20,305 nucleotides of DNA from a virus (IMGVR_UViG_2695420624_000005); one strand, 5' to 3'. Positions 12,702 to 16,956 are shown, counted from the stretch's first letter. Numbers and translations are program-made. Notes: a model not told the origin generated them from the letters alone.

Positions 12702-13627
12702 AGCTCCACCCCGTAAATCCAGTCAGTGTTCGTCAGGTCGAGTTTTGGTTTGCCGGCTGTCACGCCAGCCTGTTGCTTGTTTCGGTTGATTTCGAGCTGG
12801 GTCCACTTGTCGCGGAGTTTGGCCGGACTTAGCACGTTACCGGACCAGAAGTTGTCCTGGCATGCCCAGCGGAACAGCACGCACATGTCGCGGTGGTTAC
12901 GTCCGTCACGTTCACGCATCAGGCGGATATCGTTAGCCCACCCTGCAAAATTCGGTTTTCTGGCTGATGGCGCGATGGTCTTCACCATGTCAAACATCCA
13001 CTCTGCGGCGGTCAGGTCTTCTGCTGTCCCCCACTTGCTGCCGCTCTGAATTGCAGCATCCGGTTTCACCACAGGAAGATCGTTTTCTGGTTGGTCAGAG
13101 GATTCGCCAGAATTCTCGGACGAAAAAGGTTTTATATTGTCTTTTGTTAGTTTGTCTTTTGTGTTTACCTGATTCGGGTAAACGCCTTTACCTGATTTGG
13201 GTAAACTTTTTTTACCTGATTCAGGTAAATTTACCTCTTTCAGGTAAACTTTATTTTTCTTACCTGATTCGGGTAATGTTGACCATTCACTGACCACATT
13301 ATTAATGCCGATATTCCGCCCGCTCTGAATAAGAATCCCACGCTTTACCAGAACGCTTTTTGCAGCAGAACACTTGTGCGGCAATATCCCGGTCAATTCG
13401 GAAAGTTGCTCGTTGCTCACCCAATCCAGTCTTTTATTAAAGCCATATGTTTTGCGCATGACAGCCAGGAAGACCAGAAGCTGGTGCTGTGTTAATCCGG
13501 CCAGCATCACAGCTTCCAGCAACTCATTTGCAATGCGCGTATAACCATCGTCGAGATCTGCCACGCGCCGCTCCTTTTGTGCCACATCCGGCACTGGAAA
13601 ATTGAATATCTCAGCAGTGTTTGCCAT
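12698..13627 (-). CDS. O: Replication initiator protein O (iteron-binding; N-terminal domain diverged from lambda O)
   Basis: Probable start is the ATG at 13627 with the strong SD GGGAGGA 5 nt upstream: MANTAEIFNFPVPDVAQKERRVADLDDGYTRIANELLEA... (compare lambda O MTNTAKILNF…ERNVADLDDGYARLSNMLLEA). The ori iterons lie inside the coding region. The ORF track extends to an upstream ATG at 13717. Confidence 0.85.
   Translation of the reverse strand: MANTAEIFNFPVPDVAQKERRVADLDDGYTRIANELLEAVMLAGLTQHQLLVFLAVMRKTYGFNKRLDWVSNEQLSELTGILPHKCSAAKSVLVKRGILIQSGRNIGINNVVSEWSTLPESGKKNKVYLKEVNLPESGKKSLPKSGKGVYPNQVNTKDKLTKDNIKPFSSENSGESSDQPENDLPVVKPDAAIQSGSKWGTAEDLTAAEWMFDMVKTIAPSARKPNFAGWANDIRLMRERDGRNHRDMCVLFRWACQDNFWSGNVLSPAKLRDKWTQLEINRNKQQAGVTAGKPKLDLTNTDWIYGVEL
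13165..13276. repeat. Replication origin iterons: five copies of a 17-bp palindrome (TTACCTGA-T-TCAGGTAA and variants) inside O, next to an AT-rich stretch (about 13125..13164)
   Basis: Copies at 13165..13181, 13188..13204, 13212..13228, 13231..13247 and 13260..13276; the third is a perfect palindrome. The AT-rich block TTTTATATTGTCTTTTGTTAGTTTGTCTTTTGTG lies on the downstream side relative to O transcription, the same layout as ori-lambda. Confidence 0.8.
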
Positions 13628-14621: not shown

Positions 14622-15314
14622 ATGAAAAAAGAAACTCTTGCTGATCGCTTAAACCTAGCGATGGAACAATCTGGAATGTCTCAAGGCGCTCTTGCAAAGG
14701 CGTCTGGCGTAGCTCAACCCACAATCTGGAGACTGACAAGCGGCAACGCTCGCGGCTCAACAAAAATTGTTGAAATAGCTAATGCATTGGGTGTTCGAAC
14801 AGAATGGCTCTCATCAGGCATAGGCCCGATGAGAAATGACGGTCAACAATCAGGGAAGCCTGCTGTCAGCCATTCAAAATACTTCAAAATTGACGTTCTT
14901 GATATAGAAGTCAGTGCCGGGCCGGGAGTCATCAACCGTGAGTTTGTAGAAGTTCTACGCTCGGTTGAGTACTCGTTTGACGATGCTCGTCACATGTTCG
15001 ATGGTAGGAAGGCAGAAAATATCCGCATCATTAACGTACGCGGTGACAGCATGTCAGGAACGATCGAACCAGGTGATCTTCTGTTCGTTGATATCACGGT
15101 TAAATCTTTCGACGGTGATGGTATCTATGCGTTTCTGTATGACGACACAGCCCATGTAAAGCGCCTGCAAATGATGAAGGATAAGCTGCTAGTTATCTCT
15201 GATAACAAGAGCTACTCACCGTGGGACCCGATCGAGAAAGACGAGATGAACCGGGTATTCATCTTCGGGAAAGTCATCGGAAGCATGCCGCAGACGTATA
15301 GGAAGCATGGGTAG
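14622..15314 (+). CDS. cI: CI-type prophage repressor (N-terminal HTH plus LexA-like S24 autopeptidase domain)
   Basis: From the ATG at 14622: MKKETLADRLNLAMEQSGMSQGALAKASGVAQPTIWRLTSG… and C-terminal …RGDSMSGTIEPGDLLFVD…HVKRLQ (Ser/Lys dyad). The ORF track's TTG start at 14586 seems less likely. Confidence 0.85.
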   Translation: MKKETLADRLNLAMEQSGMSQGALAKASGVAQPTIWRLTSGNARGSTKIVEIANALGVRTEWLSSGIGPMRNDGQQSGKPAVSHSKYFKIDVLDIEVSAGPGVINREFVEVLRSVEYSFDDARHMFDGRKAENIRIINVRGDSMSGTIEPGDLLFVDITVKSFDGDGIYAFLYDDTAHVKRLQMMKDKLLVISDNKSYSPWDPIEKDEMNRVFIFGKVIGSMPQTYRKHG

Positions 15315-15425
15315 TGAAGGACGTGTCAACTCTATTTTGTAAGCTATCCAGACTCACAGTTGCAGATCGACGAGTAACTTACATACAGCACAAAAAAACA
15401 ATATGCACGTGCTTTTAGACTAGAC

Positions 15426-15440
15426 TTACCATAATGGTAA
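15426..15440. promoter_or_regulatory. 15-bp perfect palindrome TTACCAT-A-ATGGTAA overlapping the first ATG of the toxin gene (candidate antitoxin operator)
   Basis: Read directly from sequence; MqsA antitoxins are known to bind ACCT…AGGT-type palindromes in their own promoters, and this site has an ACCA…TGGT core. Confidence 0.4.
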
Positions 15441-15844
15441 CAAGTATGATTCTTAGCAGATATGTGGGAACTCCTCCCCGTGATGGCGAGGACAGAAAGA
15501 TTCAAGGTGGTCCGCTTTATTTAGATATCATTGATTTGATTGATGAATGTGACACACTGCCTTGGACTAGACGGTGTATCAGGGATGTTCAATCGCTTTC
15601 TTTAGATGCAGATGACATCAAATCTATGGTGATAAAAGCAGTCACTAAAGGGAGATTTCTAGGTTCAGAATGGTGTCAAGGCAGTAAACCAGGTGTATGG
15701 GCAGCTTGTGATGCTTATAGCTTTGAGCACTCATTTTGGTGCCAAGCTATGCATAAAGAACTTAATAACGAGTTCTACATTAAATTTTTTGTAAACATTA
15801 CTGGCAATGTAGTGCTTACAGTATCTCTTCATCTCTCTAATTGA
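15434..15844 (+). CDS. MqsR-family toxin (putative mRNA interferase) with an N-terminal extension; start codon uncertain (15434 or 15446)
   Basis: C-terminal region …LSLDADDIKSMVIKAVTKGRF…FYIKFFVNITGNVVLTVSLHLSN resembles MqsR (…LGLDFDGMCNVIIGLSESDF…VYLKITVIHDVLIVSFKEK, from memory). Toxin gene precedes the antitoxin gene as in mqsRA. Confidence 0.6.
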   Translation: MVTSMILSRYVGTPPRDGEDRKIQGGPLYLDIIDLIDECDTLPWTRRCIRDVQSLSLDADDIKSMVIKAVTKGRFLGSEWCQGSKPGVWAACDAYSFEHSFWCQAMHKELNNEFYIKFFVNITGNVVLTVSLHLSN

Positions 15845-15868
15845 GTGATGATAAATGAGGATTTTTAT

Positions 15869-16456
15869 ATGAGAAACAACAACATATGTCCAGTTTGTGG
15901 TGTAGGTCATCTCACCGTGGAGATGGAGTATGATGATGTTACTTATAAAGGGGAAACAAAAAATCTCCCAATAAGGTTTTCTGTGTGTGATCAATGTGGT
16001 TCGGAAACTGCCACACCAGTCGATTTACGAGAAAACAAACGAATTTTCAATGAATACAAAAAGTCTATCGATGGACTTTTAACAGGAAAAGAATTAAAAA
16101 AAATTAGAACTGAAGTATGGATGATAACCCAGCAAAAGGCATCCTCTATATTTGGTGGGGGGCCTAAGGCATTTTCCAAGTATGAATCTGATGATGTCAT
16201 TCAATCAGAAGCAATGGATAAACTGATGCGTTTAGCAGCAGAAGTTCCTGATGCATTCAAAAGGTTACGGGAATTATCTGGCGAAATCAAAGTTGAAAGA
16301 ACAGTCTCATCATCTAAATCTTTACCTATATGGAAACCTGAAGCAAAAGCACAATTTGAAAACGATGATCAGGGATTTGACAGCAAATCACCAGCCCAAA
16401 CAAAAATGAATCAAACATCAATAAAGATAAAAACTGTTGCTAAGCGGGTAGCATGA
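15869..16456 (+). CDS. MqsA-family antitoxin (zinc-ribbon plus XRE-HTH) with a C-terminal extension of roughly 65 aa
   Basis: Preferred start is the ATG at 15869 (GAGGA 8 nt upstream); the ORF track starts at the GTG at 15845. N-terminal CPVC…CDQC zinc ribbon; HTH …LTGKELKKIRTEVWMITQQKASSIFGGGPKAFSKYE… matches MqsA …LTQKEASEIFGGGVNAFSRYE…; low-complexity tail after about residue 135. Confidence 0.75.
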   Translation: MRNNNICPVCGVGHLTVEMEYDDVTYKGETKNLPIRFSVCDQCGSETATPVDLRENKRIFNEYKKSIDGLLTGKELKKIRTEVWMITQQKASSIFGGGPKAFSKYESDDVIQSEAMDKLMRLAAEVPDAFKRLRELSGEIKVERTVSSSKSLPIWKPEAKAQFENDDQGFDSKSPAQTKMNQTSIKIKTVAKRVA

Positions 16457-16956
16457 TGAATGAACTTCTTAGATCAGCAATAGACGCATTATCAATAATG
16501 CATATCAATATCAGAGAATCTAACTTTGCTTTTTCTGAAGGGTATAATAGCTTTAACTTCAACAGCATAAATAAGCAAACACAATCATTTCGTAAGATAA
16601 AAAAAATCGAAGCTATTGAATTAGTAAGTGACGATGACTCATTAAAAAATGAGCTATATTACTCTTTTCACTACTCAGTTGGGCTTAGATTTATTGCAAA
16701 ATCCGAAGAAACATCTAAAGACGAAAATGATGTTGATACAATTTTTTCTATAGAAGCAATTTTTGAGGCGATATATCGCTCAAAGAGAGAATTATCTAAA
16801 GAAGAGTTAGAAGAATTTGCTAAGCAAAATGTAGGTTTTAATGTATGGCCTTTTTGGCGAGAGTATGTTCAAAACAGCACATCCAGAATGGGAATTACTA
16901 CAATAGCTATACCATTCTTTAAATTCAATAAATCAGACATACCTTCATTAGATTAA
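16453..16956 (+). CDS. SecB-like chaperone (predicted third component of a toxin-antitoxin-chaperone module)
   Basis: 167 aa; start overlaps the antitoxin stop (ATGA). C-terminal half …DTIFSIEAIFEAI…FNVWPFWREYVQNSTSRMGITTIAIPFFKF resembles E. coli SecB …FLCEVQQGGIFSIAGIEG…[30 protein letters not shown] (from memory). Size matches SecB (about 155 aa). Confidence 0.55.
   Translation: MMNELLRSAIDALSIMHINIRESNFAFSEGYNSFNFNSINKQTQSFRKIKKIEAIELVSDDDSLKNELYYSFHYSVGLRFIAKSEETSKDENDVDTIFSIEAIFEAIYRSKRELSKEELEEFAKQNVGFNVWPFWREYVQNSTSRMGITTIAIPFFKFNKSDIPSLD

Follow-up and report, generated by a model that had tools for sequence, protein, structure and literature searches.

The stretch of DNA analysed here (the window) is a sequence of 20,305 nucleotides from a virus (IMGVR_UViG_2695420624_000005), given as one strand, 5' to 3'. 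It carries three co-oriented genes that specify a toxin, an extended antitoxin and a SecB-like chaperone, and these form a toxin-antitoxin-chaperone (TAC) module that lies 3' of the cI gene of a lambdoid prophage, in the slot held by rexAB in lambda. Another TAC, HigBAC, has been reported in the same slot (10.1101/2024.02.24.581848). The genes are the following:

14622-15314, plus strand: cI-type S24/HTH prophage repressor, directly 5' of the toxin gene (family scan, annotation)
15434-15844, plus strand: mqsR-type toxin ORF, 136 aa from the first ATG (132 aa from the second), with an MqsR/RelE fold and an N-terminal extension
15869-16456, plus strand: mqsA antitoxin, 195 aa, with two CxxCG zinc motifs and an HTH domain (PF15731, 64 bits; TIGR03830, 113 bits)
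16453-16956, plus strand: mqsC, SecB-like chaperone, 167 aa (PGAP name, weak HMM matches, published primers identical)

A Cro/YdaS-like gene on the minus strand is also found upstream of the toxin locus, and no intrinsic terminator was predicted between cI and the toxin gene. The antitoxin gene has its own Shine-Dalgarno sequence (GAGG, 15857-15860), 8 nt 5' of its ATG at 15869.

The locus is the published MqsRAC anti-T2 defence system of E. coli C496_10 and is not new (Vassallo et al. 2022, PMC9519451; Fernandez-Garcia et al. 2023, PMC10783111). The 'MsqRAC gene fragment' given in the supplementary material of the 2022 paper is readable for 379 nucleotides, which are identical to window positions 15346-15724, and the 3' parts of all five cloning primers (5/5) match mqsR, mqsA and mqsC of the window. 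The sequence is thus the same as that of C496_10, and the window adds its natural surroundings, a lambdoid prophage in which it takes the place of rexAB. According to the paper, MqsRAC protects E. coli against phage T2 from the native promoter, and MqsR toxicity is relieved only by MqsA and MqsC together (PMC9519451). No description of the palindrome, an operator, the transcription start or the choice of start codon was found in the accessible portions of PMC9519451 and PMC10783111. When 5426 complete genomes of E. coli are considered, 18 carry the locus, which is chromosomal every time. In at least one host strain, E. coli E2 (L001 5428-6588, NZ_CP104509), the prophage has decayed, gam and the integrase gene being annotated as fused pseudogene fragments beside ybhC, while cI and mqsRAC are intact. 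In Klebsiella phage 2b LV-2017 (L003 3053-4569, KY271395), the three genes follow a cI-like repressor gene and are all unannotated.

The toxin was not assigned to any family by Pfam, NCBIfam or PADLOC. The window protein has no match to Pfam PF15723, to which 9 of 26 homologues match weakly (best E 0.0016); comparison with K-12 MqsR by hhalign gave an E value of 0.15, and a Foldseek search returned no match. The toxin has the MqsR fold of the RelE superfamily of RNases, and the N-terminal extension relative to the MqsR-like core that had been noticed in the preliminary description was confirmed. The antitoxin belongs clearly to the MqsA family (PF15731, cut-off 30 bits; TIGR03830, cut-off 61.8 bits), carries the zinc motifs CPVCG and CDQCG, and matches the K-12 MqsA structures 3gn5/3o9x over residues 6-133 (phmmer, E 4.5e-7). 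It is 195 aa long compared with 131 aa for K-12 MqsA, and the additional C-terminal ~60 aa are a candidate chaperone-addiction region (ChAD). MqsC is named SecB by PGAP, but its matches are weak, both to SecB (Pfam 16.5 bits, below the 26-bit cut-off; NCBIfam E 0.013) and to the PADLOC model PD-T4-9_C (CmdC, E 7e-4). No model of PADLOC-DB 2.0 matches the toxin or antitoxin of the published MqsRAC, and the chaperone alone is matched, weakly, so that such loci are missed by PADLOC annotation. A SecB-like ORF 3' of mqsA was not found by phmmer in 36 of 72 related loci, mostly betaproteobacterial (e.g. L051-L075), and the mqsA genes of these loci still code for about 190-200 aa. Either their chaperones are too diverged, or they are two-gene systems with a long antitoxin.

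The sequence element on which this study centres, TTACCATAATGGTAA, lies at the start of the toxin gene. It reads TTACCAT-A-ATGGTAA and was correctly described before as a perfect palindrome, in the sense that two inverted 7-bp arms (TTACCAT and ATGGTAA) flank a single A at 15433 (7+1+7); taken as a 15-mer it is not perfect. Reading of the sequence also bore out that the right arm contains the ATG at 15434-15436, that a second ATG follows 12 nt 3' of it in the same frame, and that neither is preceded by a GGAG-like motif (the preceding bases being TAGACTTACCATA and GGTAACAAGT, respectively). The context of the palindrome is TTTTAGACTAGAC TTACCAT A ATGGTAA CAAGTATGATTCT, and the two features are:

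15426-15440, no strand assigned: predicted operator of the MqsA-family antitoxin (conservation in 69 non-redundant loci, geometry of the K-12 operators)
15446-15448, plus strand: second in-frame ATG (Met5), within TATGAT, specific to one clade; start codon in the PGAP annotation and in pBAD-mqsR

Taken alone, the palindrome is not beyond chance. Three perfect 7+1+7 palindromes were found in the window where 1.4 are expected, and at least one is present in 78% of shuffled sequences; the other two, TGATAATAATTATCA and TACCTGATTCAGGTA, are at 1534-1548 and 13213-13227. The significance of the element rests on its conservation among relatives and not on its mere presence. The motif TTACCAT-A-ATGGTAA is single-copy in the window, even when up to two mismatches are allowed. 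A second operator copy in the style of K-12 was sought in the window (at most two mismatches) and in related loci; none was found in the window, and the loci are single-copy as a rule.

Relatives were collected by a protein search with the toxin, which returned 28 clusters, and by a genome scan, which gave 72 loci from Gamma- and Betaproteobacteria with toxins 33-47% identical; to the latter were added phage L003 and four contigs of the enterobacterial clade. Of 74 loci, with toxins 33-100% identical, 73 have the pattern ACCA[TCA]N[AG]TGGT on the start of the toxin gene, generally as the only copy within the 5-kb locus. With the A of the ATG at 15434 as +1, the information content from -8 to +7 is about 2 bits per position in the 69 non-redundant loci. 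Positions -10 to +7 are invariant or nearly so, with A at -10 in 68 of the 69 and, further out, T at +9 in 51, giving the extended family consensus A(-10)nTTACCATnATGGTAAnT(+9); no conservation across these loci was found 5' of -13. Part of the constraint on the right arm comes from coding, and homologous loci are non-independent samples. The Val codon of the toxin is always GTA and the next base always A in the 69 loci, and because these are synonymous or variable positions the constraint acts at the DNA level. In the enterobacterial clade (proteins 53-100% identical) the DNA does not vary between about -18 and +20, even at synonymous sites, and synonymous variation resumes at +21.

Further upstream, between cI and the toxin gene, the window contains within 15387-15425 a weak hairpin (AGCAC-17 nt-GTGCT followed by TTTT) that is not conserved in the more distant clade members, an 8-bp palindrome (GCACGTGC, 15405-15412) and a tandem TAGAC-TAGAC (15416-15425). 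A clade of gammaproteobacterial MAGs (L008, L011, L012, L015, L018, L026, L030, L033, L035, L038, L041) shares an inverted repeat resembling GATAG-N7-CTATC and a CTCGAAAAAT block at about -60 to -19, which may be the site of a second regulator or an upstream promoter.

The earlier proposal that the palindrome is an antitoxin operator overlapping the promoter is favoured by sequence comparison: the element is near-invariant while its flanks diverge, it has the ACC-N5-GGT geometry of proven MqsA operators, and conserved hexamers of -35-like and -10-like sequence lie on either side of it. As a predicted operator of the MqsA-type antitoxin encoded downstream it is well supported. In E. coli K-12, PmqsRA carries operators of the form 5'-TAACCT(N)3AGGTTA in two copies, TAACCTTTTAGGTTA and TAACCTTTTAGGTGC, upstream of mqsR, and MqsA has been shown by EMSA to bind palindromes of this type (PMC4894380). 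The likeness is in the 15-bp palindrome, the 7-bp arms and the ACC-N5-GGT core within the control region, ACC(ATAAT)GGT in the window and ACC(TTTTA)GGT in K-12, where the sites are bound by a dimer of the MqsA HTH domain in autorepression. Two positions per arm differ (TAACCTT in K-12, TTACCAT in the window), so that the exact ACCT...AGGT arms are replaced by ACCA...TGGT, invariantly in the family. The placement is also unlike, since the K-12 copies lie 35-75 nt 5' of an ATG that is served by the Shine-Dalgarno sequence GGGAGG, whereas the window has one copy, on the start codon, and no Shine-Dalgarno sequence.

The antitoxin differs from K-12 MqsA in a corresponding manner. An MqsA homologue is encoded directly 3' of the toxin gene in all 72 genome loci, and these homologues hardly vary in the recognition helix, FGGGP[V/K]AFSKYExDD. 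Asn97 and Arg101 of K-12 MqsA are cited, at second hand, as the DNA-contacting residues (PMC5422877). Neither is kept in the family: the equivalent of Arg101 is Lys in 72/72 and that of Asn97 is Val (64) or Lys, both being Lys in the window protein. The changed residues 97 and 101 fit the changed operator (ACCA/TGGT for ACCT/AGGT) and do not argue against an MqsA fold. A helix and a palindrome that are each invariant but altered are what would be expected, by inference from sequence, of a conserved protein-DNA pair. A parallel in placement is the mqsRA operator of P. putida KT2440, TTAACCT GGA AGGTTAA, from which MqsA binding in EMSA is lost upon mutation of one arm (PMC5422877). It too is a single palindrome over the translation-initiation region of the toxin gene, but it covers the RBS rather than the start codon, its arms are of the K-12 type, Asn97 and Arg101 are kept, and no chaperone accompanies the two genes of this TA. 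The literature was also searched for operators located on a TA start codon and for leaderless mqsR, with no result relevant to the MqsRAC-type family. On these comparisons, a conserved predicted operator that sits on the start codon, with changed arms and a changed helix, would represent a novel form of MqsA autoregulation.

Several promoter-like elements surround or overlap the palindrome:

15384-15401, plus strand: A/T-rich block GCAGCACAAAAAAACAA, 33-50 nt 5' of the ATG at 15434, conserved in the enterobacterial clade
15421-15426, plus strand: TAGACT, abutting the left arm, -35-like (4/6) and also -10-like (4/6; T1, A2, T6) 7 nt 5' of the ATG at 15434; invariant in the clade
15430-15435, plus strand: CATAAT, within the palindrome, alternative -10-like hexamer (1.65 bits, no usable -35), with a start at about 15442, 4 nt 5' of the second ATG
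15445-15450, plus strand: TATGAT, -10-like, 18 bp 3' of TAGACT with the palindrome as spacer (8.65 bits), predicted start about 15457

The A/T-rich block may be UP-element-like. TAGACT-18-TATGAT is the best sigma70-like PWM site in 15300-15480. The hexamer at -13 to -8 is -35-like in 30 loci including the window (TTGACT, TGGACT, TAGACT, TTGACA), and the same 30 loci have TAnnAT at +12 to +17, with T occupying +12 in 23/30 and A occupying +13 in 28/30, where a fraction of about 0.23 would be expected; codons 4 and 5 nonetheless specify 11 and 7 different amino acids, respectively, in these loci. Loci without the -35-like hexamer also lack the -10-like one. TATGAT has the variants TATTAT, TACGAT, TAAGAT and TAGAAT in other clades, and on this alignment the second ATG is the TATGAT version of the conserved TAnnAT hexamer. 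A spacer filled by an operator, as predicted here, is a textbook layout for repression. However, the predicted start at about 15457 is 3' of both ATGs, within conserved coding sequence, and the TAGACT-TATGAT promoter by itself can therefore not express the toxin.

This promoter suggests an explanation that would complement the operator reading and is possible, if tentative: that an autoregulated TAGACT-TATGAT promoter makes an mRNA for MqsA and MqsC only, and the toxin is produced only from rarer upstream starts, by read-through from cI/PRM or by weak leaderless initiation at 15434. It would account for the score of the site, for the joint presence or absence of the two hexamers, and for the invariance of the clade DNA, which covers exactly this core promoter. 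It also has a precedent in pA1 and pA2, two promoters within K-12 mqsR that drive mqsA alone (Fraikin et al. 2019, PMC6918082). The likeness is that of a promoter inside the toxin gene of a toxin-first operon from which the antitoxin is made without the toxin start; the K-12 promoters are constitutive, not under operator control, and located far inside mqsR, whereas the predicted one of the window would straddle operator and start codon. By crude ORF calls, the ORF closest on the 5' side has the same orientation in 56/70 loci, and no terminator is predicted after cI. The case nevertheless rests purely on consensus and comparison, betaproteobacterial loci do not show the hexamer arrangement, and the Ile6 codon accounts for part of the AT at +16/+17. 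Moreover, the upstream gene is divergent in Erwinia (L077) and in L079, where the toxin needs a start of its own, and the native 88-bp fragment is enough for defence unless the vector reads through, the clone beginning at 15346 being described as working from the 'native promoter' (PMC9519451). The divergent genes of L077 and L079 and the functional 88-bp fragment speak for a start inside the conserved block from which the toxin is expressed. The wider arrangement, in which operator, start codon and sigma70 promoter would be interleaved, the antidote mRNA self-contained and the toxin made from entering transcripts (cI/PRM, R-M operons, LexA-controlled promoters, weak leaderless initiation), is likewise put forward with reserve.

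Under the operator reading with a start at 15434, two sources of toxin mRNA are possible. TAGACT may serve as a -10 hexamer for a leaderless mRNA that starts with the ATG. A -10-like hexamer ending 7 nt before the ATG is present in 21 of 69 loci including the window, and reads TAAAAT in betaproteobacterial loci; a positionally conserved -35 for such a promoter (-36 to -31) was sought in the 69 loci and not found, and in the window TAGACT has no good -35 and no usable upstream promoter scores well. Lambda PRM reads TAGATT-6 nt-ATG, to which the TAGACT-7 nt-ATG of the window may be likened. The mRNAs of lambda cI (from PRM) and 933P paaR2 are leaderless, starting at the A of the ATG without a Shine-Dalgarno sequence, but the window, unlike these, has no recognisable -35. 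The second possible source is read-through from cI, as no terminator is predicted, the upstream ORF is mostly co-oriented, and in prophage 933P the TA pair of paaR2-paaA2-parE2 is co-transcribed 3' of a cI-like repressor gene (PMC8630535).

Upstream surroundings vary among the relatives. Six betaproteobacterial loci (L051, L064, L068, L069, L072, L074) have a LexA-box-like CTGT-N8-ACAG 35-55 nt 5' of the toxin ATG, which suggests SOS control of a transcript entering the toxin gene. In others (L007, L060-L063, L066, L067, L071) R-M-like genes (type I hsdM/hsdS or type IIG), identified by eye from the sequence, lie directly 5', some of them co-oriented and 26-63 nt away.

The start of the toxin had been called ambiguous, and the databases agree: PGAP (WP_024222007.1) begins the protein at the equivalent of 15446 and the record of phage PhiR70_1 at that of 15434. 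Base +1 is A in 66 and G in 3 of the 69 loci and never C or T, while the mirror position -2 is less restricted (T 58, C 9, A 2), and the stricter +1 points to a second constraint on that base, consistent with a start codon. A GTG takes the place of the ATG in three or four loci; GTG is a poor start for leaderless translation in E. coli. The stretch that follows behaves as coding sequence. A conserved Ser (in Ser-x-Tyr/Phe) falls at codon 6, 7, 8 or 9, the indels being all of whole codons, and is specified by AGC in gammaproteobacterial but TCN in betaproteobacterial loci; both the codon switch and the whole-codon indels indicate that the DNA from ATG to Ser is translated. A V. cholerae homologue of the toxin, from a TAC, is functional when expressed from a MVNN start, ATGGTAAAT (PMC5105189). 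The native toxin start is accordingly placed, with reasonable but not full confidence, at 15434 on this comparative evidence, and Met5 may be used as well.

The suggestion that the toxin begins at 15446 was not upheld for the family or its ancestor, since Met5 is limited to the enterobacterial clade and the palindrome ATG is universal. As an explanation for the enterobacterial clade only, which is judged unlikely, CATAAT (15430-35) would be the -10 of a transcript from about 15442 that is translated from the ATG at 15446. Besides the choice made by PGAP, this explanation could draw on the presence of Met5 in all homologues of this clade, down to about 52% identity, and on a -35-like hexamer 16-18 bp 5' of CATNAT in 28 of 69 loci. 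Published mqsR constructs begin at 15446, and their 132-aa product is toxic, an effect neutralised by MqsA together with MqsC (PMC9519451); the toxicity of this form means that toxin residues 1-4 are dispensable for toxicity. Against this, CATAAT lacks a -35 in the window (1.65 bits), most of the family has no Met5, codon 5 outside the clade being T, I, K, R or others, while the palindrome ATG is in frame throughout, and conservation of Met5 in the clade is explained by the invariance of TATGAT at the DNA level.

It is very improbable that the palindrome works as a hairpin in the mRNA, concealing the start codon and exerting translational control, and this explanation was rejected. In the transcript a 6-bp stem could arise, closing a 3-nt loop in which the UG of the AUG lies (-4.1 kcal/mol), and without a Shine-Dalgarno sequence access to the start codon could limit translation. 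However, the energy is at the level of shuffled sequences (z = -1.2; 23/200 fold as well), the left arm would be outside the RNA if transcription begins at or after the ATG, and the arms are conserved in sequence with zero compensatory changes in the 69 loci. Arms that are conserved in this way, without compensation, and an RNA hairpin this weak favour a DNA site recognised by protein over an RNA structure. A chance feature of an AT-rich intergenic region, which the number of palindromes expected per window would permit, is already refuted, since 73/74 loci from two proteobacterial classes carry these 15 bp over the start codon in an identical register, and its likelihood is negligible.

From the observed sequence, conservation, homology, fold and identity with the published system, a mechanism can be proposed in which antitoxin binding, repression, the ATG used and the transcription start are the predicted parts. 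The palindrome would be the only operator for the MqsA-family antitoxin, whose gene lies 430 bp 3', and a dimer of antitoxin HTH domains would bind TTACCAT-N-ATGGTAA. The site would lie within the core promoter of mqsRAC as well as on the toxin start codon, so that its occupancy is proposed to shut off transcription of the operon (autorepression), and the bound antitoxin would also block RNA polymerase coming from cI. The toxin, starting at 15434 without a Shine-Dalgarno sequence, would be translated inefficiently, from a leaderless, very short-leader or read-through mRNA, while the good Shine-Dalgarno sequence of the antitoxin gene would keep antitoxin and chaperone in excess. Taken as a whole (antitoxin operator, autorepression, native start at 15434 and inefficient toxin translation), this model is probably correct, judging from the comparative data.

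The element is a variation on the well-known autoregulation of TA systems and should be of moderate surprise to specialists. MqsRAC itself was already known, and what is new is the comparative picture of a near-invariant predicted operator on the start codon together with the antitoxin helix. MqsRAC is a model phage-defence TAC system, and no description of its regulation was found in the accessible text of PMC9519451 and PMC10783111. If the palindrome is the operator, its 15 bp offer a direct handle for EMSA, reporter and derepression work. The motif A-TTACCAT-N-ATGGTAA can also be used as a search motif that marks the start codon of this toxin family in unannotated genomes. RefSeq and the published constructs, which use the second ATG, drop four residues of an N-terminus that is conserved in the family, while other records keep the first ATG. 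The promoter puzzle touches toxin-first operons such as mqsRA, higBA and hicAB, and concerns how an excess of antitoxin is guaranteed in them. Should the interleaved promoter arrangement prove true, the supply of toxin would be coupled to the transcription of the host element, while that of the antidote would be self-contained.
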